Part shown: one piece after another, positions 3,203 through 62,487 of the stretch | How positions within the stretch are numbered: position 1 is the first letter of the stretch | Layout: each line of letters begins with the position of its first letter | From: Candidatus Liptonbacteria bacterium | GTDB taxonomy: Bacteria; Patescibacteriota; Minisyncoccia; UBA6257; 2-01-FULL-56-20 | NCBI GenBank assembly: GCA_016204385.1 | Contig: JACQKW010000013.1 | Coordinates: 12,507-76,506, forward strand | Length of the DNA: 64,000 bases | Direction: 5' to 3' | Translations under genes and position numbers: made by a program | Notes under the pieces: generated by a model | The model's database searches: none | Told to the model about the DNA's origin: nothing | What the model saw: only the letters and a program-made list of their open reading frames with translations

Positions 3203-4585
3203 TTATATCATAGATTGAATACCTCGAAGTTTTTTGTGATAGGTGATCGCAAAGCGGTGCGCTTCGTCGCGGACGCGGATGAGCGTTCTTTTCTCTACGC
3301 CCTTGGGGATTATGCCGATTATGTCGTTACGTTTCCGCTCCGGGCCTTTCGCGATGCCGATCACAGGAATTTTAAGGCCGGCCTCGGAGAGCACGTGCTT
3401 CGCCGCATTTACCTGTCCCCTGCCGCCGTCAATCAAAATGAGATTCGGAAGCGGCCACCCTAAATCGCCGTGGGCGATCGGGTGTCTGAACCGCCGCCGA
3501 AGCACTTCTTTGAGCATTCCCACATCGTCCGATTTCTGGATTGTCCGAATTTTGAACTTGCGATACTCGTTTTTATCGGGCTTGTCTCCTCTGAAAACCA
3601 CCATCGAGCCCACCGCGGACGTTCCGGAAATGTTCGAGATGTCATAGCCCTCGATGCGATAATGAGGAGTGAGAATTGAGAAGTGAGTAGTGAGCTCGTT
3701 GTCGCCGATTAAGGCAACATCCTGAATGTGCTGTAGCGCAAAAATCTGGCGGCGAATTGTTTCCGCTTTTTCAAATTCAAGCGCTTTGCTCGCCGCCTTC
3801 ATTTCATGTTCAAGCGACGTGAGGATCATCCCCTTTTTGCCGCGAAAGAACAGCTTGAGATTCTTGATATTCTTTGCATACTCTTTTTGGTTTATCGCAC
3901 CCACGCACGTGCCCGGGCAAAGCCCGATTTCATATTCAAAGCATGGCCGCCTTCGGCTCTCATAATGCGAATCTTCGAATGTGTGCGAATGCTGCCTGCC
4001 CGACTTTGCCTGAGGCAAACTCAGGCGGGCGGGCGAATTGCGAATCCACCGATTGTCGACTGGCAGATTTGGATGAGTACCATAAGGGAAAATTCGCCGC
4101 ATGATTTTGAGCGCCTCGCGGATGCTCCCGGCCGAAGTAAACGGTCCATATCTCTCCCCTGCCGGTTTGGACTTGCCTGCCTGCCCAAGGCCCCGCATTT
4201 GCGGAGCCTCGCCTTTGGCGGGGCGTGGCCGATAGACATGGCCGCGCACAAGGAGGACGCGCGGAAACGCTTCTTTCGTGAACTCCACATAGAGAAAACT
4301 CGTGTCGTCTTTCTCGCGGACATTGTAGGGCGGCTGGTGCTTCTTGATGAGTTCCGCTTCAAGAATAAGCGCCTCGATTGCCGTGTCGGTTTTCTTATAC
4401 TCGATCTTTTTAATTTCGCGTACGAGCTTTTGGATGCGGTAGTCGTGTGGGCGCAGAAAATAGCTCGACACCCGCCGCCGCAAGTTTCCCGCTTTGCCGA
4501 TGTAGAGAATTTTGCCTCTCTCGCCCTTCATGAGATAAACGCCGGGCGAAATAGGCAATTTTTCATAAAGAGTTTTCATGTTCAC
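3203..4585 (-). CDS. uvrC: excinuclease ABC subunit C (short form, no C-terminal HhH2)
   Basis: GIY-YIG N-terminus (PGVYLMKGERGKILYIGKAGNLRRRVSSYF), UVR-like helix (LEHEMKAASKALEFEKAETIRRQIFAL), and an endonuclease domain ending RDEAHRFAITYH. Contains repeat-derived in-frame inserts (see findings). Confidence 0.88.
   Translation of the reverse strand: MNMKTLYEKLPISPGVYLMKGERGKILYIGKAGNLRRRVSSYFLRPHDYRIQKLVREIKKIEYKKTDTAIEALILEAELIKKHQPPYNVREKDDTSFLYVEFTKEAFPRVLLVRGHVYRPRPAKGEAPQMRGLGQAGKSKPAGERYGPFTSAGSIREALKIMRRIFPYGTHPNLPVDNRWIRNSPARLSLPQAKSGRQHSHTFEDSHYESRRRPCFEYEIGLCPGTCVGAINQKEYAKNIKNLKLFFRGKKGMILTSLEHEMKAASKALEFEKAETIRRQIFALQHIQDVALIGDNELTTHFSILTPHYRIEGYDISNISGTSAVGSMVVFRGDKPDKNEYRKFKIRTIQKSDDVGMLKEVLRRRFRHPIAHGDLGWPLPNLILIDGGRGQVNAAKHVLSEAGLKIPVIGIAKGPERKRNDIIGIIPKGVEKRTLIRVRDEAHRFAITYHKKLRGIQSMI
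3667..3694. repeat. 4 x 7-bp tandem NNNTGAG repeat inside uvrC
   Basis: gagtgag aattgag aagtgag tagtgag. It encodes LTTHFSILTPH on the minus strand. Confidence 0.7.
3988..4045. repeat. palindromic element B, copy 1 (in frame inside uvrC)
   Basis: aatgctgcctgcccgactttgcctgaggcaaactcaggcgggcgggcgaattgcgaat. About 96% identical to 62400..62454. Internal dyad cctgagg/ctcagg and outer gcctgcccg/cgggcgggc. Confidence 0.85.
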
Positions 4586-10255: not shown

Positions 10256-13009
10256 TTATTTCAAAACTCGTCTCAAATACTCGCCCGTAAAACTCTCCTT
10301 TTTTCTTGAGATCTCCTCGGGCGTCCCGGCGGCGACCACTCTGCCGCCCTTGTCGCCTCCTTCGGGACCAAGATCAATCACCCAGTCGGCGGTTTTGATC
10401 ACATCTAAATTGTGTTCGATTACGACCACCGTATTTCCGCGCTCGACGAGCCGCTGGAGGACTTTGAGTAAATTGTCTACGTCCGCAAAATGGAGTCCGG
10501 TTGTCGGTTCATCAAGTAAATAAAGCGTTCTCCTCGTGTCACGTTTTCCAAGCTCCGCCGAGAGCTTGATCCTCTGCGCCTCTCCGCCCGAGAGCGTGGT
10601 GGCAGATTGGCCGAGTTCCAAATAGCCCAAGCCCACGTCTTCCAAAATGCTCAAGCGGTCGTGGAGATGCGGGATATCTTTAAAGAATTTCACCGCTTCC
10701 TCGATTGTGAGTTTTAGGATATCGTAGATGTTTTTACTTGCGCTCCTATCTTTCGAAGAAAGATGGGAGGGTGAATACTCTACTTCAAGCGTCTCGCGGT
10801 CGAAACGCTTGCCTTTGCACACTTCGCATTCCACGTAGACCGTCGGCAAAAAGTGCATTTCTATCGCGATATAGCCGTGCCCCTCGCAGTTCTCGCACCT
10901 GCCGCCCGGGACGTTGAAGCTGAACCGCCCGGGTTTCCAGCCGCGCACGCGCGCGTCCTCGGTTGAGGCAAAAAGCTCGCGGACAAACGTCCACGCGCCC
11001 ACGTAGGTTGCCGGATTCGAGCGCGGCGTGCGTCCTATGGGCGACTGGTCAATGTTGATGACGCGGTTAATGTACTCGGTGCCGAGAATCGCATTGACTG
11101 AGGTTGGTCTGTGCCGCCCCGACGCTCCAGTCGGGGTCCCGACCCCGCGGTAGCGGGCGTCGGGATTGAACTTGTTTGCAAGCGTCTTAAAAATCACATC
11201 GTAGACCAAGCTCGATTTTCCCGAACCCGAGACGCCGGTCACCGCCGTAAGGCGCCGCAAGGGAACATCCACGTTGATATTCTGCAAATTATTTGCCGTG
11301 GCGCCTTTCACTTTTAGAAAATCATGTCCGCCAGCTGGCGGATTCGCGACCTTCCGCCGCTCTTTCGGCACTTCGATGAACTGGTGGCCGCGAAGATAGT
11401 CGAGCGTGAGCGAATTGTTCTTTTTTACATCCTTAATGATTTCTGGGATTGTTCCCTGCGCGATGATTTTCCCGCCGTGCACTCCCGCACCCGGCCCGAT
11501 ATCCACCAAATAATCGCTCTTACGGATGGTCTCCTCGTCGTGCTCGACCACGATGATGGTGTTCCCGAGGTCGCGGAGCTCGTGGAGCGTCTTGATGAGT
11601 TTCGCGTTGTCCTTTTGGTGGAGGCCTATGGTCGGCTCGTCCAAAATATAGAGCGTTCCCACGAGCCGCGAGCCGATCTGCGAGGCGAGCCGGATGCGCT
11701 GTGATTCTCCGCCGGAGAGCGTCCCCGCCCTCCGTTCGAGCGTGAGATAATCGAGCCCCACGTCAATCATGAACTTCAGACGGTTTTTTATCTCGCGGAG
11801 CGGTGTTTCCGCAACAAGATAGCGGCCCGTTGCCGGTTGGCCGCTATCTTGTTTAAAACCCAGCGGTTTTAACCCGCTCTCCGCCGGTTGGCGGATCGCT
11901 TTTCCGCCACGGGAAAACTCCCGTTTTCCCGACCCCTTTCCCTCGTCTCGTAATTCTTCGAATTTCGATCCGCCTTCCTTAAGCTGTGCTTCGAGCTTAC
12001 CGAAAAACTCATGCGCGTGCGCGATCGAAAATTCCACCACGCTTGCGATATTCTTCCCGTCAATTAATACATTCAAGCTCTCTTCGCGCAAGCGTTTTCC
12101 GAGGCATGCAGGACAGATCTTTTCCGACCATATTTCTTCCGTGCCAAGCCCGTGGCACGTTTGGCAGGCGCCGTAGGGGCTATTGAAAGAAAAAAGGCGC
12201 GGTTCGATCTCGGGAAACGAAAAACTGTCCTGCGGGCAGGTGAATTTTGCTGAAAGAGAAATTTCGTCGTCCGTAATGATCGTTACCACGTCATTTCCAT
12301 ACTTAAGGGCGGATTCTATCGCTTCCGCTAATCGAAGCCGGTTGTCCTTGTCTTTATAATCCATACCTGACGGAATGCGATCCACCACAAGCTCTATCGT
12401 GTGCTGTTTGTACCGCGAGAGTTCTATGCGGTCGCGGAGCATGTGCATTTTTCCGTCAATCCGCACCTCGCGGAATCCGGCGTTCAGGAAATCGTAGAGC
12501 ATCTGGTAGTACTCCCCCTTTCTGCCCCGCACGGCAGGGGCGAGAATGAGTAAGTTTTTTCCTGATTTGTTCTTTCCTGCGATATCAATAACGGCATCCA
12601 CGATCTCCTCGTTCGTCATCTTTTTGATCTCCCTGCCGCATTTTGGGCAGAACGGTTTCCCGAGGCGCGCAAAAAGCACGCGGAGATAGTCGTAGATTTC
12701 GGTGATCGTCGCGACCGTCGAGCGCGGATTGTGCGAGTGGCTTTTCTGGTCTATGGAAATCGAGGGCGAGAGGCCTTCTATTTCGTCCACGTCCGGTTTG
12801 TCCAAGCGTCCCAAAAACTGCCGCGCGTACGCCGAGAGCGATTCGATGTAGCGCCGCTGGCCTTCGGCGAAGATCGTATCGAACGCCAAGCTCGATTTCC
12901 CCGAACCGGAAAGCCCCGTAAAGACGATCATCTTGTCGCGCGGGATTTCAAGATTGATGTTCTTTAAATTGTGCTCGCGTGCGCCGCGGATTATGATTTT
13001 ATCCTTCAT
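10256..13009 (-). CDS. uvrA: excinuclease ABC subunit A
   Basis: [20 protein letters not shown] start. Walker [24 protein letters not shown] and a second [11 protein letters not shown]. Zinc modules CPKC...CQTCHG and CENCEGHG...CEVCKG. ABC signatures LSGGE. The ORF-track N-terminal extension (to 13108) was rejected. Confidence 0.95.
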
Positions 13010-13101
13010 GAACGATGAAAACTCCCCTCCGAGCCGCCTAGTAGGGGGGTACAGAAGAAGTGTAACGCGTAATTTTAAAAAATGCAACGATCTGCAAACA
13101 T

Positions 13102-13133
13102 TTAACAATTCCTACGATCGTAGGAATTGTTAA
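13102..13133. repeat. perfect 32-bp palindrome with ACGATCGT core
   Basis: ttaacaattcctacga|tcgtaggaattgttaa, about 95 bp upstream of the uvrA ATG. Confidence 0.9.
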
Positions 13134-30895: not shown

Positions 30896-30926
30896 AATGA
30901 ATAACCGCACCGCAGAGCGGTGCGGC
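30896..30926. repeat. exact second copy of the 2562..2592 hairpin
   Basis: aatgaataaccgcaccgcagagcggtgcggc, 31/31 identical. Confidence 0.9.
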
Positions 30927-49916: not shown

Positions 49917-50017
49917 CCGGGTCGTCCCCGGCTTGGATAGTTACTCGCGTAGCTCTCTCGAGTCGGGGCATTGCCCCTTAATTATCTATACAAGTATAAC
50001 CGATTTTTCAGGATAAA
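49917..50017. repeat. ~100-bp direct repeat, left copy
   Basis: ...cggcttggatagttactcgcgtagctctctcgagtcggggcattgccccttaattatctatacaagtataaccgatttttcagg... matches 53076..53174 at about 85-90%. Confidence 0.85.
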
Positions 50018-50065
50018 TTAAGAAAAAAGTTTCTTTTACTCGCGTTGCGATTGCTGCTACTTTAT

Positions 50066-50743
50066 TTATTGCTTTTTATCAAGGAGAGGTGGTCTGATGA
50101 ATTGTTGTACGTCTGATTTAATAAGTATTCTCTTTACATCTGTCTTCTTGACAAGAGATAGCATGGGGTTTGTTGAGTTTTTTGGATTATTCTCGTCGGG
50201 AATTGAAAATCCAATATATTCGACTTTTTTCTTCTTTCTAATACGGACCCAATCAATAGCGGGGACTAAGTCAGAATCTGAACTTACCACAATGGCTGTA
50301 TCATACTGATTGTCTACCGCCCCCACAATAAGATCAGTAGCAAGTTTAACGTCTATCCCCTTCTCGCGTAACCTTTCAAATCTAATTTTATCGATGCCAG
50401 CCTTACGAATTCTTTGATAATCGACAACACGGCTATCTATTGTTATCTCCTCGAGTCTTGTTTTAAGTTTACTTGTTTTAATTTCCCACTTATCACGCTT
50501 TAAAATAGTGAAAAGAGAGGTTTGTTTTGCCATCGCCTCCTTGCTTCTTGGGTCACCTTCTTTTTCTCGGACGGTACCAACATAAAATCTTTTACCCATG
50601 TCAACAATGATCCGCCCATTCGCCAAAAATTTGGCGAACCCTTCAAAATCGAAACCAGCCTCTTGTACCCCAAGTTTTTTAAGTGCCAAATGGTAAAAGT
50701 TACCTGCATCAATGAGAATCGAGACCCGTTCTTTACTAGCCAT
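50066..50743 (-). CDS. NYN-domain (LabA/DUF88-like) protein
   Basis: VSILIDAGNFYHL...EKGIDVKLATDLIVGAVDNQYDTAIVVSSDSDLVPAI (PIN-like acidic residues). Confidence 0.7.
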   Translation of the reverse strand: MASKERVSILIDAGNFYHLALKKLGVQEAGFDFEGFAKFLANGRIIVDMGKRFYVGTVREKEGDPRSKEAMAKQTSLFTILKRDKWEIKTSKLKTRLEEITIDSRVVDYQRIRKAGIDKIRFERLREKGIDVKLATDLIVGAVDNQYDTAIVVSSDSDLVPAIDWVRIRKKKKVEYIGFSIPDENNPKNSTNPMLSLVKKTDVKRILIKSDVQQFIRPPLLDKKQ

Positions 50744-51110
50744 ATCCCTTAAATTATGCATGAAAATAAAAACCTGCACACTACCTTTCGGCAGGCGCAG
50801 GTGACTTTCATGTCTATGATAGGCATTTATGCCAAAGGGGTCAAGTCGTTCTTGTTAATATTGCTATTTGATCAGTATTTACCTTGCCTTATTCAAGTTT
50901 CCTGGTTACTTGTTACTCCTCCGGGGTGCTTGCCCGCCTCCCTGTCTGCCTCTGGCACGATGGAGGGAGGCCGCCTGCCTGCCGGTAGGCAGGTAGAGTT
51001 TACTCGTGGTGAGTGAAGTCGAACCATTTTCTTGTCCCGTAGTGAATGCTTTGCGTTCTACTACTGGGGTTTGTTGACCAGTTATACATTTTTAAAATTA
51101 CGCCGAGATC

Positions 51111-51995
51111 TCATAATTCCCTCTCCTCTATTTTAAAAGAGTTAAATTGAGCCTTTGGCTCACTCGACCCCCTCGAGGGAATTAGACCTACACTCATCGC
51201 AAGTGGTTCAAGTAGTGGGGCCGGTGTAAAAATGTACGTGCCAGATAAAGTTTGATAGTCCGCGTTTTCCGGCTTATTCGGTAGGTATTTTATATCTAGA
51301 ATTACCCTAAATTGACCGGCAGAAAGAGGGTCGTGTAGTATTCTCGTTTGGATTTCTGATCCCTTTCGAAAACCGCCAGCAGTGGTCAAGCGTATTCTTC
51401 CTGTTCTCTGTTCTTGAATAGGCACCCAATCTTGCCCAACGCCCCGCAGGGCTTTTAGAGTCACAGATGTATAATCGTCATCTCCTATAACGATCTCATA
51501 AAGACCGTGAATCAAAATCACGATATTGCTCACTTCTGTCCCCAAAGGAATAAATTTTAACTCAAAAGTCGATTTAGCGGAGATCGGTTGGTGAAATTTA
51601 AGTAGGCCGGCGGTACTAGTGGTGACTAGTTGAAACAAAGCACGATCCTTACTAAGAGCCGTCAGGCTTGCAAGCCCAAGTTGTTGCCACCTCCCATCTT
51701 CGAAGTTACTCTCGTCTAAAATTTTTGCACTTGATATCAAGTTCTCGGTATGTTCGCCTGCCTGGCTGGAACGATCAATCATTGTAAAGGGACCATATCC
51801 TAATTTTCCAGTTATAAGATACTGCCCAATGAAGTAAATAAAAATCAGAAGCAACACCACTAAGAACACTGGAAGGAATCCTCGTTTTTCTAAGTCGGGC
51901 CCCCACCTTTTCTTAATGATGTCGTAGATGACACCCTGAATCCGCCGCCATAGAAATTCTTTATCGCTTTTCAATTCGGGAATTTCATTACTCAT
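51111..51995 (-). CDS. membrane-anchored protein with beta-rich (jelly-roll-like) ectodomain, unknown function
   Basis: TM LPVFLVVLLLIFIYFIGQYLI. Beta-strand-rich remainder. 4-bp ATGA overlap with the upstream gene. Confidence 0.5.
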   Translation of the reverse strand: MSNEIPELKSDKEFLWRRIQGVIYDIIKKRWGPDLEKRGFLPVFLVVLLLIFIYFIGQYLITGKLGYGPFTMIDRSSQAGEHTENLISSAKILDESNFEDGRWQQLGLASLTALSKDRALFQLVTTSTAGLLKFHQPISAKSTFELKFIPLGTEVSNIVILIHGLYEIVIGDDDYTSVTLKALRGVGQDWVPIQEQRTGRIRLTTAGGFRKGSEIQTRILHDPLSAGQFRVILDIKYLPNKPENADYQTLSGTYIFTPAPLLEPLAMSVGLIPSRGSSEPKAQFNSFKIEEREL

Positions 51996-53050
51996 CGAAG
52001 TAGTTCCCAGGCAGTGCCTCGGATATAAAAATTATCAATAACAACACCATCGCTGTTTTGCCACAACGCTAATCCAACCTGGTCGGATCCTCCATCAGGA
52101 GCCTGAATCCGGTCGTTATCAACATACTCCAGTACTACTTCCGATGCTGAAAACTTAAAGTTTGGATTTACTTGTTCATCAAATTCCAATGGTCGAATAG
52201 CGAGTTGATAAACGAAATCTTTTCGAACAAATCGTGCGTGATAGCGAACCCCGGCTGTCATCTCAAAACTCCTCCCTCTGATTTCTGGTAATTCACTGGG
52301 ATGGTGAAAGAGTATGGTTGCCTTATTGCCTACACCGCCTAACACAAACTCATTACGGGTTGAATTAAGGAAATAAAAAACCAATCCCACACGCTTCCCT
52401 AGAGGAGTAAATTCAAAGTCAACCGTTATATCGCTAGAGAACGGATACAGAAAAGCGAGGGAGCCGTGTTTATATTCAGTAGTTTTTGTTTGTACGAGAA
52501 GCTTCTCGTTATCTACTACAAACCAATCGGCTGGATTACCTTTCGGAATTAACCAAACCTTCGATTTCGTCAGTGGAGTGGTAAAAGAATCCAGATATCC
52601 AATTGTTAAATCAAAATCTAAGCTTTTAGACGATCCTGTTGGTTCAGTATACTCCAACCGCAATTTATATTTTTGTGGAGCTAATGCGTAAGCAGGCTCA
52701 AAAACAACGGAGTCGTCCGCGAAACTTGTTGCCCCGTGGAATTCATTGACCAAAACATTTTCTGAATCATTAATTTGTAGTTGTAGTGATTGAAAATTAA
52801 TAGTTGATCGGAACCTCAAAACAATGTTTGGACGTAGAGTGGTGGAATAAATACTGTTTTGAACCCCCCGGCGTAACAAGACATTATCGACAAAAACCTC
52901 TACTGATTCTTGTGATGGAGTAATTTGTGGACCAACGATCAGTTCCTGTTGTTTGTGATTTGCAAATAACAAAATAACCACCACGGTAGCGAAGACAATC
53001 GCCCCTATCAATAAAATAATCCGGAAATTATTAGGAGTGTGAGATTTCAT
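51992..53050 (-). CDS. membrane-anchored protein with beta-rich (jelly-roll/LamG-like) ectodomain, unknown function
   Basis: TM FRIILLIGAIVFATVVVILLF. C-terminus LALWQNSDGVVIDNFYIRG resembles DUF1080/LamG-type ends (from memory). Confidence 0.5.
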   Translation of the reverse strand: MKSHTPNNFRIILLIGAIVFATVVVILLFANHKQQELIVGPQITPSQESVEVFVDNVLLRRGVQNSIYSTTLRPNIVLRFRSTINFQSLQLQINDSENVLVNEFHGATSFADDSVVFEPAYALAPQKYKLRLEYTEPTGSSKSLDFDLTIGYLDSFTTPLTKSKVWLIPKGNPADWFVVDNEKLLVQTKTTEYKHGSLAFLYPFSSDITVDFEFTPLGKRVGLVFYFLNSTRNEFVLGGVGNKATILFHHPSELPEIRGRSFEMTAGVRYHARFVRKDFVYQLAIRPLEFDEQVNPNFKFSASEVVLEYVDNDRIQAPDGGSDQVGLALWQNSDGVVIDNFYIRGTAWELLR

Positions 53051-53075
53051 TTAATTATTAGGTAAAAAAACTGAA

Positions 53076-53174
53076 CCGGGTTGGCCTCGGCTTGGATAGT
53101 TACTCACGTAGCTCTCTCGAGTCGGGGTATTGCCCCATTAACTCGTACAGTATAACCGATTTTTTGAGGAAAAT
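53076..53174. repeat. ~100-bp direct repeat, right copy
   Basis: ...cggcttggatagttactcacgtagctctctcgagtcggggtattgccccattaactcgtacagtataaccgattttttgagg... Confidence 0.85.
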
Positions 53175-53237
53175 CGAAGGGGAACACTGTGGATAACTTT
53201 CGGTTTTCTTTCGGTATCCTCGTTTTATAATAATACT

Positions 53238-54683
53238 ATGGTCACCAAAAAACAAAAACAAATTTGGGATTTTGTTCAAAAATTTCTTTCCCAAAAAGGA
53301 TTCTCTCCCACCCACGAAGAAATAAGAAAACATTTCAAACTTCGGGCTGTTTCAACGGTTGCGCAGCATATTAAAGCACTAGAAAATAAGGGGCTTATTG
53401 CCAAACAAAGCAATCAAAGACGCGGTATTGAAATCACAAAATCAGAGCCGTTAGTAAAAATTCCCCTCCTCGGCACAATTAGTGCGGGTCAACCCATAGA
53501 AGCAATTCAAGACAAGGAAATGATCGCTGTTCCTAAGAGCAAAATTCCTCCTTCGTCAGAAGTTTATGCTCTCCGGGTAGTCGGCAGTAGTATGGTTGAT
53601 GAAAATATAAATGATGGGGACATTGTTTTGGTCCGCCAACAAGCAACAGCAGAGAATGGGCAAAAAGTTGTAGCTCTTATTGATAACCACGATGCGACAC
53701 TAAAGAAGTTTTATAAAGAGCGAGGGTATGTCCGTTTGCAACCAGCAAACAAAACTATGGAGCCGCTTATTTTCCGAAACGGGCGGGATATTTCAATACA
53801 AGGGATAGTGCTTGATGTTATTCGCGAGGAGGGAAATTCTAAGATTCAATTATCAGAGGAATATAAAGAATCGGGAAGGAGTCTATTACAAAATGCATAT
53901 TATAAAAAGCAGGGATTTATTCTGTATCATGGAAATTCTTTAGGTATCCTATCTAAACTTCCGGAAGCTTCCGTAGATATGATTTTTTCAGATCCTCCGT
54001 ACAATCTTTCAAATGGAGGGTTTACTGTCCACGCGGGTAGAATGGTTAGTGTTAATAAAGGTGAGTGGGATAGAAGTAAGGGATTTCAGGATGATTACGA
54101 CTTCCATTACAATTGGCTCGCGGCCGCTAAAAGGGTTTTGAAGCCTGGTGGTAGTTTATGGGTTAGTGGAACCTATCATTCGATTTACCAATGCGGTTAT
54201 GCACTTCAGGCTCTTGGCTACCATATTTTGAATGACATCTCGTGGTTTAAGCCCAATGCGGCGCCAAATTTAAGTTGTAGATTTTTCACGGCGAGTCATG
54301 AAACTTTAATATGGGCGAGGAAAGAAAAAAAAGGAAAACATATTTTTAATTATAAAACGATGAAAGATGGGATTTGGAATGGAGACTTTCTCAAAAAACC
54401 TAATATGCAAATGCGTTCAGTGTGGGCTATTGGAACTCCAAAACCAGAAGAAAAAAAATTTGGCAAACATCCAACCCAAAAACCTTATGAACTATTGAAG
54501 CGCATTGTTCTTGCCAGCACTAACAAGGGAGATTTAATTATTGATCCTTTTACCGGTAGTTCAACAACGGGCATGGCGGCATATCTCCAAAACAGAAATT
54601 TCATCGGTATCGATACCGAAAAGAAATATTTAGATTTATCTATCAAGAGATTGGAAGATCTGAGTAAAAGATCTCTAGTATAG
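53238..54683 (+). CDS. LexA-like repressor (wHTH + S24 peptidase) fused to beta-class N6A/N4C DNA methyltransferase (CcrM/HinfI-like)
   Basis: Residues 1-200 contain the LexA DNA-binding domain (THEEIRKHFKLRAVSTVAQHIKALENKGLI), the cleavage site ISA83-G84QP, GSS117M and ATLK155KF. Residues about 230-481 contain FSDPPYNL (motif IV) followed by IIDPFTGSSTTGMAA (motif I), i.e. beta-class order. TATAAT (53226-53231) ends 7 nt before the ATG, so the transcript may be leaderless. Confidence 0.85.
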   Translation: MVTKKQKQIWDFVQKFLSQKGFSPTHEEIRKHFKLRAVSTVAQHIKALENKGLIAKQSNQRRGIEITKSEPLVKIPLLGTISAGQPIEAIQDKEMIAVPKSKIPPSSEVYALRVVGSSMVDENINDGDIVLVRQQATAENGQKVVALIDNHDATLKKFYKERGYVRLQPANKTMEPLIFRNGRDISIQGIVLDVIREEGNSKIQLSEEYKESGRSLLQNAYYKKQGFILYHGNSLGILSKLPEASVDMIFSDPPYNLSNGGFTVHAGRMVSVNKGEWDRSKGFQDDYDFHYNWLAAAKRVLKPGGSLWVSGTYHSIYQCGYALQALGYHILNDISWFKPNAAPNLSCRFFTASHETLIWARKEKKGKHIFNYKTMKDGIWNGDFLKKPNMQMRSVWAIGTPKPEEKKFGKHPTQKPYELLKRIVLASTNKGDLIIDPFTGSSTTGMAAYLQNRNFIGIDTEKKYLDLSIKRLEDLSKRSLV

Positions 54684-54685
54684 AC

Positions 54686-55258
54686 TTATTTATAGCCGGG
54701 CATGGCTGCCTGAAGTACTTCGGTATAATGCAGTTTACCGTCAACATAATCACGTAAGGTCATAAGAAGATCGCGAAACATGTACGCCCCGAGGTTTATT
54801 TTTTCATTCTTACAAAAAAGTTCAATAACCGTTGCTACATAATCAAGAGAAAGAGTGTAGTTCTGCTCTATATAGGAATACTTTGAGATAATAATTTTAA
54901 CGGTCTCAAGTTGATAACCATTTCGTTCTTCAACCGAAGAAAAAGGCGTAGCGGCGTTGTAGTAGTTAATATAATATTCAACAATCTCTCTTACTTCTTT
55001 ACGATACTGTGGAATTTTGAGGAGCAAATCCACAACCCAAAATGTATGGGTGGGTGGCCTAAGTACCTTATCTGATCCGGGAATTAAAATCTTAACAACA
55101 AAATCAAGTTTTGGATTTATCCCACGACTTCCTTGAAACAGTCCTATTAACGTTCCATCTTTAGTTTTATAGGTCAGAAAGGCTTCGGCTTTAGGCCTAA
55201 GCTGTTTTAGATTGGTACCATCGTAATATTTTGAATTATAGACTGAGTTTGTGGGCAT
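54686..55258 (-). CDS. hypothetical protein in R-M-like module
   Basis: 190-aa ORF, tail-to-tail with the methyltransferase (2-bp gap) and 3 bp after the upstream nuclease-like ORF. No motif recognised. Confidence 0.5.
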   Translation of the reverse strand: MPTNSVYNSKYYDGTNLKQLRPKAEAFLTYKTKDGTLIGLFQGSRGINPKLDFVVKILIPGSDKVLRPPTHTFWVVDLLLKIPQYRKEVREIVEYYINYYNAATPFSSVEERNGYQLETVKIIISKYSYIEQNYTLSLDYVATVIELFCKNEKINLGAYMFRDLLMTLRDYVDGKLHYTEVLQAAMPGYK

Positions 55259-55261
55259 TGT

Positions 55262-55894
55262 TTATTTCTTGGGAATTGGTAGGCCGAGAACTTTTAGTGG
55301 TAGCATGTGAAAATAATAATTACAGCCGACATCACTGATAAAACTTAGTGTATCTTTATATTCTGGTTTCTTGAACCAATCACTTAATATATAGATAAAT
55401 TCAACATCAATCTTGAGTAATTTAAAAAGTTTTTGATACTGTCTCTTTTTAAAATCACAGGTTTGTAATTTTTCATCTACGGAGCCGGCGACCTCTTGAA
55501 ATTTCATCTCTATAATGAATACCTTCCTTTGGTTTTGTACATAAAGCGCTTCGTCTGGAAGTAACTTTTTTGAGAGGACCGTTTTATAATCAACCCCACG
55601 CTTTTCAAGGAAACGATAGAGTTTGTTCTTGCCGATACTCTGAGCTACCTTTTCGCCATCGTAAAATATCGAATCACCCTGCACAGAATATCTGGGTGTC
55701 TTAGCAAATACTAAAAGTAAATTAACCCGTTCCTCAAAATCCAGCCCAACGCGCGTACTTGCTCCCCCAATGCCATCTTTAATCATTTTTTTGTCATTAG
55801 AAATTCTGGTTTTTAACTTGGAATCTGACGGAACAGAAAGTATTGATTTTTCCAGTCCTCCCTCCTTCGTGTAAAGCTTCGAACGAGCAATCAA
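55262..55894 (-). CDS. putative PD-(D/E)xK restriction endonuclease
   Basis: LLPDEALYVQNQRKVFIIEMKFQ fits PD...(D/E)xK. Adjacent to a methyltransferase and AT-rich like the rest of the island. Confidence 0.5.
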   Translation of the reverse strand: MIARSKLYTKEGGLEKSILSVPSDSKLKTRISNDKKMIKDGIGGASTRVGLDFEERVNLLLVFAKTPRYSVQGDSIFYDGEKVAQSIGKNKLYRFLEKRGVDYKTVLSKKLLPDEALYVQNQRKVFIIEMKFQEVAGSVDEKLQTCDFKKRQYQKLFKLLKIDVEFIYILSDWFKKPEYKDTLSFISDVGCNYYFHMLPLKVLGLPIPKK

Positions 55895-60817: not shown

Positions 60818-60967
60818 AAGCGTTCGTAATGGTTCAATAGCTTGGAACTCCGACGTTTCGGTCGGAGTCCGACCTCGCATCCTGCGAGCGTCGGGCCTCT
60901 GACCTGTCGCGTGTGAACGGAGCGCTCTGCTATTGAGCTCCGACGTTGCAGTCGGGGCTAAACGCCC
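60818..60967 (-). pseudogene. tRNA-Val-like gene interrupted by CCGAC/GTCGG hairpins (D stem 10/11 and anticodon loop 37/38), T arm not recognisable
   Basis: GGGCGTT-TA-G[CCCCGACTGCAACGTCGGAG]CTC-AATAGCA-GAGC-G-CTCCG-TTCACA[58 nt, 60911-60854]T-CGGAG..., aligned by eye to the intact tRNA-Val. Confidence 0.6.
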
Positions 60968-60969
60968 GG

Positions 60970-61041
60970 TGCGCGTTGCAGGGATCGAACCTGCCACCTC
61001 TCCGATGTGAACGGAGCGCTCTGCCACTGAGCTAAACGCGC
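60970..61041 (-). tRNA. tRNA-Val (anticodon CAC)
   Basis: GCGCGTT-TA-GCTC-AGTGGCA-GAGC-G-CTCCG-TTCACAT-CGGAG-AGGTG-GCAGG-TTCGATC-CCTGC-AACGCGC-A. Confidence 0.9.
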
Positions 61042-61307
61042 ATTCTTATTTTTCTCTCTTTGATAATCTTCTCAAGATAATCTCTTCTTTTCAACTTCTT
61101 GAGCTTTTTTTCAACGCTACGTGCCACTTCAATAGTCGAAAACTCTTGAGAGAATACGAGACGAAGCTCACCAAACCGCTTCGTTGACCAAGTAAAACCG
61201 CCTCTGTGGTGCCTAAATCGCGAACGCAAGTCCGTAGTGCTACCAACATACAATCTCTTGTCTCGCAAACTTTCCAAGATATAAACGTACCCGGTCATAT
61301 ATAGCAT
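61032..61307 (-). CDS. stand-alone GIY-YIG nuclease-domain protein (~90 aa)
   Basis: GYVYILESLRDKRLYVGSTTDLRSRFRHHRGG...E. Its stop overlaps the first 10 nt of tRNA-Val. The ORF-track extension to 61415 is hairpin DNA. Confidence 0.75.
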   Translation of the reverse strand: MLYMTGYVYILESLRDKRLYVGSTTDLRSRFRHHRGGFTWSTKRFGELRLVFSQEFSTIEVARSVEKKLKKLKRRDYLEKIIKERKIRMRV

Positions 61308-61321
61308 TTCAACCGACTGAG

Positions 61322-61365
61322 CCCCGACGAGCTCTGCTGTCGGGGCCCCGACGGTAACGTCGGGA
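61322..61365. repeat. two tandem CCGAC/GTCGG hairpins
   Basis: ccccgac-gagctctgct-gtcgggg (61322-61345) and ccccgacg-gtaa-cgtcggga (61346-61365). Same family as 60848-60867, 60868-60895 and 60938-60957. Confidence 0.8.
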
Positions 61366-61394
61366 CTACACGCGCTCAACTTCACCATCGTAAA

Positions 61395-62367: not shown

Positions 62368-62487
62368 GCGTGATGCAAATCTACAAATTTTATGCCAATA
62401 ATGCCTGCCCGACTTTGCCTGAGGCAAGCTCAGGCGGGCGGGCAAATTGCGAATACGGATTAGTGATCATTAGATTGGCATTATCAT
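62368..62487. repeat. repeat element A copy 2, with element B (62400..62454) nested inside
   Basis: gatgcaaatctacaaattttatgccaata[B]cggattagtgatcattagattggcattatcatc. The B core is gcctgcccgactttgcctgaggcaagctcaggcgggcgggc. Confidence 0.8.

Follow-up and report, generated by a model that had tools for sequence, protein, structure and literature searches.

Introduction

The locus described here, a tRNA-Val locus on the minus strand of 64,000 nucleotides (nt) of a Candidatus Liptonbacteria contig (JACQKW010000013.1; the whole stretch analysed is called the window), finds a close counterpart among described systems in the mobile open reading frames (mORFs) of fungal mitochondria. In atp6 of Allomyces and in atp6, atp9, cox2 and nad3 of Glomus, an endonuclease open reading frame (ORF) is accompanied by a foreign copy of a part of the gene (PMC3630166). 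The native part of the gene is left as a non-functional duplicate, the ORF may be in phase with the host gene, and the mORF of atp9 encodes a GIY-YIG enzyme (PMC3630166). The window matches this plan, with a tRNA stub, a GIY-YIG ORF, an intact tRNA gene and a truncated, displaced tRNA body, and we consider it moderately probable that a mobile tRNA-replacing cassette, whose movement we infer, occupies the locus. In relatives, the cassette likewise comprises an ORF and a complete new tRNA gene, beside a native stub and a displaced body (related loci L001, L011, L123, L136 and L185, and L152 compared with L128). Unlike a mORF, it targets a tRNA gene of a bacterial chromosome and supplies the whole gene instead of a C-terminal portion; its nuclease is of a minimal, Slx1-like kind, and the insert is bounded by conserved hairpin doublets.

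A second counterpart is SegB of phage T4, a free-standing GIY-YIG homing endonuclease encoded in the tRNA gene cluster, whose recognition site is a conserved tRNA-gene sequence, and which drives the inheritance of its own gene and of the flanking tRNA genes, replacing the tRNA region of the recipient (PMC2330249). SegB is phage-borne, its C-terminal part binds DNA and resembles that of I-TevI (NUMOD3), and it recognises the T-psi-C motif, whereas the cassette protein has 88 amino acids (aa) and no such extension, the junctions of the cassette lie in the D arm, and no close relatives of the nuclease were found on viral contigs. Neither a group I intron nor a phage-genome setting of the I-TevI/Seg type was found at the locus with Rfam and PHROG.

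The hairpins, for their part, resemble repetitive extragenic palindromes (REPs) and their REPIN arrangements associated with REP-associated tyrosine transposases (RAYTs), with inverted palindrome doublets, many solo copies and few copies beside a dedicated nuclease gene. They differ in that the linked gene encodes a GIY-YIG protein and not a Y1 transposase of the IS200/IS605 type, in their strong bias to tRNA D arms, and in the cargo tRNA that is carried. The CGTC REPs and Rickettsia palindromic elements (RPEs) insert in frame into repair genes including uvrA and "apparently lack a dedicated transposase" (PMC3733652). They have a terminal CGTC tag, a stem of 8-9 base pairs (bp) starting with A/T, a loop of 4-5 nt and a CCA tail (PMC3733652). 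In-frame copies also occur in the present case, in uvrA, DnaK and, among the matches listed, 29 other long ORFs. Membership of the CGTC-tagged REPs and RPEs was rejected on stem, tag and tail: the stem is GC-rich (NNCCGAC) and 7 bp long, the loops measure 3-34 nt, and CGTC is present solely within the stem.

Yeast mitochondria contain mobile GC clusters, which are short GC-rich palindromes, some of them in frame (var1), with a reported preference for TAG/AG sites, and the mitochondrial DNA of Allomyces contains double-hairpin elements near a mobile GIY-YIG ORF insertion. Both are organellar, unlike the cassette, and we take the likeness as a lead and not as a test; we know of no cargo tRNA or systematic ORF-hairpin unit described for either. 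Slx1 cuts branched and stem-loop DNA, as is also stated in the titles of entries in the PDB. Like eukaryotic Slx1 and the bacterial UPF0213 (YhbQ-type) proteins, the cassette nuclease is a minimal domain with no auxiliary domains. The members of the Slx1/UPF0213 family are described as minimal nucleases that stand alone and mostly pass by vertical descent (PMC1564403), and the family is regarded as a housekeeping one; the cassette subfamily is patchy, linked to tRNA genes and located within repeat-bounded inserts, but the GC of its ORFs follows that of the host. In a full-text literature search of incomplete coverage, neither the GIY-YIG/tRNA/hairpin arrangement nor the occurrence of these hairpins in bacteria of the candidate phyla radiation (CPR) was found described, and a cassette design recurring at many tRNA genes of CPR bacteria appears undescribed so far.

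Results

Organisation of the tRNA-Val locus

The elements of the locus are listed below in the order in which they are read on the minus strand.

61427-61395, minus strand: terminator hairpin ending rplJ and rplL, upstream of the stub
61375-61366, minus strand: stub GCGCGTGTAG, read as nt 1-10 of the former resident tRNA-Val (9 of its 10 nt agree with the intact tRNA)
61365-61321, minus strand: left double hairpin HH_L, after G10 (TAG^CTCA), by fold and motif match
61365-61347, minus strand: hairpin 1 of HH_L, TCCCGACGTTACCGTCGGG, that is TCCCGACG-TTAC-CGTCGGG
61346-61321, minus strand: hairpin 2 of HH_L, GCCCCGAC-N10-GTCGGGGC
61321-61308, minus strand: D-loop remnant CTCAGTCGGTTGAA, tRNA nt 11 to about 23, leading into the ORF start
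61298-61032, minus strand: GIY-YIG ORF, 88 aa if started at the ATG of 61298 (91 aa with that of 61307)
61075-61048, minus strand: promoter-like hexamers TTGAGA-16-AAAAAT in the 3' end of the ORF (9/12 match)
61041-60970, minus strand: intact tRNA-Val(CAC), functional copy (ARAGORN; Rfam RF00005, 65.6 bits)
60967-60958, minus strand: inner pseudo-5' piece GGGCGTTTAG, 2 nt (CC) after the intact tRNA and before the right hairpin
60957-60938, minus strand: right hairpin H_R CCCCGACTGCAACGTCGGAG, CCCCGAC-TGCAAC-GTCGGAG, at TAG^CTCA
60937-60912, minus strand: displaced tRNA-Val body CTCAATAGCAGAGCGCTCCGTTCACA, nt 11-37, with D arm, 5' anticodon stem and anticodon CAC
60911-60897, minus strand: 15 nt outside any hairpin, between A37 and the next hairpin
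60896-60868, minus strand: nested hairpin of the terminal doublet
60867-60848, minus strand: last hairpin CTCCGAC-CGAAAC-GTCGGAG, end of the pseudogene, followed by unrelated sequence

An earlier note on this DNA had located the stub, the hairpins, the remnant, the ORF and the intact tRNA gene, and its coordinates and sequences for all of these were confirmed. Alignment with homologues favours the ATG at 61298 over that at 61307 as the start of the GIY-YIG ORF, and its stop codon, TAG at 61034-61032, is formed by nt 8-10 of the intact tRNA-Val. The right hairpin H_R is a single hybrid with one arm of type 1 and one arm of type 2. We read the intact tRNA-Val(CAC) as the cargo, or replacement, tRNA of the cassette, and, as in the split loci of relatives, the stub and the displaced body as the two halves of a former tRNA-Val(CAC). 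When an empty site was sought in the same species, two contigs with identical RplL (L085 and L086) proved to have the arrangement of the window, and both end within the locus.

The displaced body is 78% identical to the intact tRNA-Val across 49 nt, and the same note had placed in this second copy an insert exactly at positions 37/38, the canonical tRNA-intron site, after which the anticodon strand T-CGGAG resumed. This proposal counted the same bases twice, TCGGAG being the 3' arm of the last hairpin, and 15 nt that belong to no hairpin separate A37 from the first hairpin, so that the apparent position 37/38 is a coincidence of the hairpin arm. The copy is truncated, stands beside an intact isoacceptor and is recognised neither by ARAGORN nor by Rfam, even at E<=5, and no second T arm or 3' acceptor strand of tRNA-Val is present anywhere in the 64-kb window. 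Insertions of the hairpin element in the anticodon arm are also seen in L136, L206, L057 and L079.

A repeat of 24 nt, GTTCCAAGCTATTGAACCATTACG, begins where the pseudogene ends (60848-60825, minus strand) and recurs near 57.7 kb (57722-57699, minus strand) with 2 mismatches, where 0 such repeats are expected by chance. The repeat noticed earlier is thus real; the idea that it replaced the T arm of the second copy did not hold, since it is only neighbouring promoter-proximal sequence that follows the truncation. Both copies lie 40-75 nt upstream of the starts of minus-strand ORFs, and the copy at 57.7 kb sits as a loop between the arms of an inverted repeat of 8 bp. The 24-nt sequence, which is outside any tRNA, may serve as an operator or regulatory site.

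Recurrence of the unit in related genomes

When a collection of 185,579 genomes, each representing one species, was scanned, with detection limited by the search pattern, 183 relatives were obtained; 80 of their loci were fetched, mostly from Patescibacteria with some from Omnitrophota, and 79 were usable. A tRNA gene on the same strand starts between -30 and +200 nt from the ORF stop in 64 of the 79 loci, and in 27 of these 64 it starts at exactly -9, so that the stop codon is tRNA nt 8-10 as in the window. When both sides of the ORF are considered, a tRNA gene abuts it in 71/79 loci, and most of the other eight contain a tRNA 5' half, as judged by eye; in several of them the half is that of tRNA-Asn and precedes an apparent group I intron of the kind described in PMC13011429. 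A CCGAC hairpin is found no more than 230 nt upstream of the ORF in 66/79 loci. The suspicion of the earlier note that the association of the hairpin element with the GIY-YIG gene was not accidental is well founded in these counts, and the GIY-YIG gene is not found beside unrelated genes. The partner tRNAs have ten identities (Thr, Val, Arg, Ile, Asn, Ala, Phe, Lys, His and Pro), and the GIY-YIG proteins group by the identity of the tRNA across hosts of 28-58% GC.

The hairpins belong to the unit, 193 of the 210 matches in 318.7 kb of related loci being in or beside an ORF/tRNA pair; the 200 nt preceding the ORF account for 145 matches and the 300 nt following it for 43, with only 17 elsewhere. 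Stubs like that of the window are present in most related loci, and their ends fall into two clusters of 19 loci each, one at tRNA nt 10-12 and the other at nt 15-17; the automated alignment of stubs to tRNAs is noisy at more than two mismatches and was used solely for these two clusters. The hairpins are followed by tRNA-specific remnants of 6-17 nt. Locus L004, from an AT-rich Moraniibacteriota genome, for instance, displays a promoter and TCCGCGATAG, two GC-rich CCCGAC hairpins, a CTCAAT remnant, the ORF, and a promoter with an intact tRNA-Asn, while in the Liptonbacteria locus L001 the stub, hairpins, remnant, ORF and tRNA-Ile(TAT) are followed by a second Ile gene with a hairpin interruption. 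Contigs often break at the cassette locus.

In four loci (L007, L014, L027 and L070), the tRNA-Asn downstream of the GIY-YIG stop is normal up to the anticodon loop and then diverges, and it was missed by ARAGORN. The sequences of these genes are consistent with the presence of group I introns such as those reported in tRNA-Asn genes of Patescibacteria (PMC13011429).

Resident tRNA genes interrupted by the unit

In five related loci (L001, L011, L123, L136 and L185), the hairpin-interrupted copy downstream of the intact tRNA has kept its 3' end, and the acceptor strand there pairs without mismatch with the 7-nt acceptor strand of the stub far upstream. The pairs are GGGCCAG/CTGGCCC in L001, GCGCCTG/CAGGCGC in L011, AGGCTCG/CGAGCCT in L123, CCGCTCG/CGAGCGG in L136 and TCCGCAG/CTGCGGA in L185, and in 4/5 loci the intact tRNA lying between the stub and the displaced body has a different acceptor stem. 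It follows from this complementarity that about 450-500 bp have come to separate G10 from C11 of what was one continuous tRNA gene. In order, the insert is made up of hairpins, a D-arm remnant, the ORF, a complete tRNA gene, a short piece ending in TAG ("xTAG") and hairpins again, and both of its junctions fall exactly on hairpin boundaries. The xTAG pieces precede the right-hand hairpins in all five loci, as GGGCGTTTAG does in the window.

An orthologous empty site is provided by L128, where a plain, intact tRNA-Thr(CGT) stands at the place at which L152 has a stub (GCCACCTTAG), degenerate hairpins and a different, complete tRNA-Thr(CGT) whose two acceptor strands have changed together. Between organisms, nucleotide homology runs from the stub and hairpins through the ORF to the end of the tRNA, over about 420-480 nt, and stops there. 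Across the related loci, the unit is inserted at tRNA nt 10/11 or 15/16. Stubs, displaced bodies and stub-hairpin-tRNA arrangements lacking the ORF are decay products of the insertion.

A long target-site duplication was also considered as the origin of the two hairpin-bearing copies. It was rejected, as the stubs have 0 mismatches to the displaced 3' strands in 35 positions, whereas the pseudo-5' pieces beside the right hairpins differ at about 11 of 42.

Structure of the hairpins and their spread outside tRNA genes

The window contains 9 matches to the motif CCGAC-N3-30-GTCGG where 2.55 would be expected, and 0/100 shuffled sequences reach 9; six of the matches are at the tRNA-Val locus and two in uvrA. 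The doublet HH_L has a predicted DNA fold of -20.8 kcal/mol (z -4.0), and the single-strand folds of the window hairpins have predicted z values of about -4. In an alignment of 155 hairpins, the core C-CGAC/GTCG-G is nearly invariant, two outer stem pairs covary (CG, TA and GC) with 82-85% Watson-Crick pairing, and the fourth position is unpaired. An invariant core combined with covarying outer pairs indicates that both the structure and the sequence of the hairpins are under constraint. Hairpin 1, with a loop closed by G..G, is of the reverse-complement type of hairpin 2, closed by C..C, and the element is therefore an inverted doublet of one unit, as in REPs. Hairpin GC is 67% irrespective of the GC of the host (r = 0.10), and the element commonly ends in a TCGGAG-type arm, as in L004 and L010.

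The insertions have the flank consensus wAG^yTnA, without target duplication, and the tRNA D-arm sites TAG^CTCA and CAG^TTGG agree with it. Nested hairpins are frequent upstream of the ORF, a whole hairpin being found in the loop of another (L010, L009, L008, L012, L014 and L032), and in L010 a single stub holds one doublet at nt 10/11 and another at nt 16/17. A distinct hairpin variant, AGCCGACC…GTCGGCT, is used at the insertion site in the D loop.

A metagenome scan with the doublet pattern gave at least 120 loci. Among the 120 doublets listed, 33 are at tRNA/GIY-YIG loci, 30 are in frame within long ORFs and 57 are elsewhere; the 33 comprise 13 with the GIY-YIG ORF directly downstream, 3 with the ORF within 250 nt and 17 that lack it and lie in a stub beside an intact tRNA. 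A separate count of doublets in long open frames, again among the matches listed, found a length divisible by 3 in 23/31 and a remainder of 1 in 0/31. The in-frame doublets encode peptides such as PRRxxGVGVPTxASGK. In DnaK, a doublet adds 14-15 aa at the identical site, between AYGFGK and VFDFGGG, in two organisms (L106 and L108). The hairpins are thus mobile-like and strongly enriched at tRNA loci (33/120 among the matches listed), yet not tRNA-specific. Of the site-specific hairpin element suggested in the earlier note, the preferred points in the tRNA D arm and the consensus wAG^yTnA remain, while an attachment to tRNA genes does not, 87/120 listed doublets being outside tRNA/GIY-YIG loci; similarly, the clustering of hairpins in 530 bp that it pointed out exceeds chance but is not confined to that place, as the window has one further doublet:

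11117-11165, plus strand: solo double hairpin, perfect and in frame in uvrA (uvrA at 10256-13108, minus strand)

The uvrA doublet (fold z -4.06) contributes about 14 aa to UvrA, and this insert is absent from the solved UvrA structures, including that of Geobacillus, and from the 11 closest homologues (best identity 74%). Elsewhere in the gene, 11810-11983 contains five more strong hairpins of other sequence types, with an RNA-parameter fold of -76 kcal/mol, and the segment that they encode exceeds its counterpart in a homologue of 66% identity (P0057) by about 45 aa. The segment 10727-10783 is extra in comparison with most homologues and overlaps a small hairpin, and at the matching position a homologue from Liptonbacteria (P0065) carries another insert. 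The uvrA gene of the window seems to have been struck repeatedly by palindromic inserts.

The GIY-YIG protein

The protein matches the GIY-YIG domain (Pfam PF01541, E 1.1e-14, 55 bits against a cut-off of 22.6), and its closest homologue, at 99% identity, comes from a metagenome-assembled genome annotated as Candidatus Liptonbacteria. The residues Y9, Y20, G22, R30, H34 and E66 (Tyr, Tyr-x-Gly, Arg, His and Glu, in alignment numbering) are invariant in 18 homologues; from knowledge of the family, we take them to be catalytic. The AlphaFold2 model, with a predicted local distance difference test score of 92.2, has a three-stranded sheet plus helices. Among solved structures, 1zg2 (E 1.8e-5) and 1ywl (E 0.035), both UPF0213 proteins, come closest in sequence, and the best Foldseek matches are 1zg2 and Slx1 (template-modelling score 0.56-0.63, root-mean-square deviation 2-3 Å), the UvrC N-terminal domain and I-TevI ranking lower. 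No DNA-binding extension was found (zinc finger, NUMOD or helix-turn-helix), the protein consisting of the catalytic domain and two short helices only. Given that no such extension is present and that the nearest folds are Slx1 and UPF0213, the sequence and the structural model indicate a minimal stand-alone domain of the Slx1/UPF0213 type and not an intron endonuclease of the I-TevI type. The match to TIGR01453 (19.5 bits) is below its cut-off of 56. The suggestion that the gene encodes a classic homing endonuclease of tRNA or rRNA introns is not supported by this 88-aa domain, nor by the locus, where no intron ribozyme was found.

No match to PHROG or PADLOC was obtained for the protein, and the IMG/VR viral contigs contain only distant nuclease relatives, no close ones, and no hairpin doublets. 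A phage or defence origin was rejected on these results. Across the related loci, the ORFs are about 10 GC points below their flanks.

Discussion

We propose that the cassette consists of a double hairpin, a short D-arm remnant, the GIY-YIG gene and a complete tRNA gene, with a second hairpin at the far end. It would have entered the resident tRNA-Val between G10 and C11 (TAG^CTCA), leaving nt 1-10 upstream as the stub and pushing the body downstream, where this body would have decayed through further hairpin insertion and truncation. The cell would then depend on the tRNA-Val(CAC) of the cassette, and this dependence would make the cassette hard to lose. The ORF would be transcribed from the promoter of the resident tRNA; it has no stop of its own and ends at the TAG of tRNA nt 8-10, and because this stop codon is inside the tRNA, the ORF could be translated only from transcripts that have not been cut at the tRNA 5' end. 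The promoter-like hexamers in the 3' end of the ORF are sigma-70-like and suitably placed for the intact tRNA, although chance alone would give 0.7 such sites in this region. They might drive the cargo tRNA, in which case the conserved …YLEKII… coding stretch could double as a tRNA promoter; we regard this as a hint only. It can be hypothesised that the GIY-YIG protein cuts hairpin or D-arm DNA and thereby drives insertion, either through break and repair or through the mobilisation of hairpin-bounded DNA. The hairpins would serve as cis-acting ends, as a recognition site, or as both, in the manner of a composite element between two miniature elements.

Several points weigh against this proposal. 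When 93 cassettes were compared with one another by blastn, no two at different sites proved near-identical: the top pair (99.8%) represents the same locus, a syntenic pair has 78.7% identity, and the best pair without shared flanking homology has 86%, so that recent movement is undocumented. The GC of the ORF follows that of the host (r = 0.73), which implies long residence or vertical descent in the lineages. In the window, the displaced copy is truncated at its 3' end, and the pairing of stub and body is seen in relatives only. The D-arm remnants are sometimes chimeric between resident and incoming tRNA (L001 and L123), and the order of events is consequently blurred by gene conversion. The activity of the nuclease and its cleavage site are predicted only; a domain of 88 aa has no obvious means of sequence recognition, and the intact cargo tRNA retains TAG^CTCA, which leaves self-immunity without explanation. 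In addition, we know of no strand-transfer activity in GIY-YIG chemistry, and homing alone therefore cannot explain hairpins of 45 nt at unrelated sites.

There is a substantial chance that the cassette represents a new way of moving DNA. More specifically, the doublets and the Slx1-like nuclease could together constitute a new class of bacterial DNA transposon without a transposase or integrase fold, in which hairpin-ended DNA, either a solo doublet or a pair of doublets around the nuclease gene and a tRNA gene, would be cut and moved, preferably to wAG^yTnA sites such as the tRNA D arm, and the autonomous copy would be retained through the destruction and substitution of an essential tRNA gene. 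We put this forward tentatively and hold it to be possible, though the odds are against it. If true, REP-like palindromes without a RAYT would for the first time have a candidate enzyme.

Among the alternatives, the one that survives best supposes two separate elements, namely a GIY-YIG gene that is a free-standing homing gene moving by double-strand break repair, and hairpins that are independent miniature elements. The homing site would be the hairpin doublet itself or the "empty" stub-hairpin-tRNA allele, and the hairpins would not be cassette ends at all, having been moved by another enzyme into any dispensable TAG^CTCA site. Such a separation would account for a start codon at a near-constant, short distance (about 10-27 nt) after the hairpins, reminiscent of those GIY-YIG enzymes whose cleavage falls a fixed number of nucleotides away from where they bind, and for the 87/120 listed doublets that have no GIY-YIG gene nearby; the 17/120 in ORF-less stub-hairpin-spacer-tRNA arrangements could be the empty alleles. 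The hairpins also have their own target consensus, wAG^yTnA, and pile up in every dispensable copy, at times twice or nested (L010 and L009). It is less easily reconciled with split loci in which the insert junctions fall exactly at hairpin boundaries, or with hairpin copies within a locus that are near-identical private variants (L018 and L025). No other candidate enzyme is linked to the hairpins, and L162 and L197 look, on a weak reading, like internal deletions of the ORF and not like virgin sites. We judge this alternative rather unlikely, if worth keeping in view.

A domesticated host factor comparable to the RAYTs appears improbable to us. As a structure-specific nuclease, the protein would deal with DNA in hairpin or cruciform form and would be inherited vertically beside tRNA genes for the sake of expression, the tRNA fragments being by-products of hairpin-induced rearrangements. 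The description of Slx1/UPF0213 proteins as mostly vertically inherited minimal nucleases (PMC1564403), the conservation of catalytic-type residues, the correlation of ORF GC with host GC and the lack of recent copies in the blastn of 93 cassettes are what such a factor would lead one to expect. The distribution is nevertheless patchy, with 183 matches in 185,579 species genomes, a figure limited by the search pattern; there are ten tRNA partners, and the protein clades are tied to tRNA identity. Moreover, a resident tRNA is split by an insert that carries a foreign tRNA allele, the ORFs are 10 GC points under their flanks, and assemblies break at the locus. The notion that the hairpin inserts are intron-like, being removed from RNA so that the interrupted Val copy is functional and the GIY-YIG protein is the homing endonuclease of the intron, is largely refuted for this locus and extremely unlikely: although inserts recur at the same tRNA positions (10/11, 15/16 and the anticodon arm) and Patescibacteria tRNA genes do contain introns (PMC13011429), those introns are reported to be of group I, 184-894 nt long, with HNH, LAGLIDADG or PD-(D/E)XK endonucleases and not GIY-YIG ones, no ribozyme or other RNA family was found in the inserts with Rfam at the gathering threshold or at E<=5, the interrupted copy of the window has neither T arm nor 3' acceptor strand, each interrupted copy seen adjoins an intact isoacceptor, the "resuming" TCGGAG is the hairpin's own arm, and the same hairpins keep the reading frame in protein genes, as expected if they are never removed.

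If the proposal of a tRNA-replacing cassette is correct, bacteria that are ultra-small and have genomes of about 1 Mb put up with the overwriting of essential tRNA genes by a selfish element, which leaves the host dependent on the copy that it supplies. Addiction of this kind has until now been described in fungal mitochondria, where it concerns protein genes. The proposal would tie a stand-alone nuclease of Slx1/UPF0213, a widespread family without known function, to a defined DNA structure and a genomic behaviour, and would offer a candidate enzyme for palindromic repeats without a tyrosine transposase, a question left open in PMC3733652. The conserved CPR proteins UvrA and DnaK carry peptide inserts encoded by hairpins, and, at a more practical level, stubs and interrupted copies mislead tRNA annotation and fragment CPR assemblies.

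Other features of the region

An integrative island in a tRNA attachment site was considered for the region and rejected, as the window has no second tRNA-Val 3' part and the duplicated parts are 5' ones; no integrase gene adjoins the tRNA-Val locus. A block of low GC at 50000-55800 (35-45%, against 51-57% around it) lies about 5 kb from the locus and is not adjacent to it. Between the two are DUF1937/DUF4406 and DUF3850/ASCH genes, together with regions in which ORFs overlap on both strands, and the region of the low-GC block may be acquired DNA.

In comparison with the near-identical L128, L093 has about 550 nt more, with a Cys-rich ORF, between tRNA-Thr(GGT) and tRNA-Thr(CGT), which looks like a second, unrelated mobile ORF using the tRNA cluster and may, from its Cys motifs as judged by eye, be of the HNH type. 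Elsewhere in the window, an identical palindrome of 21 nt, CCGCACCGCAGAGCGGTGCGG, occurs at 2571-2591 and 30905-30925, and a near-identical one, GCCTGAGGCAA(A/G)CTCAGGC, at 4008-4026 and 62417-62435; these may belong to other small repeat families or be shared terminators.

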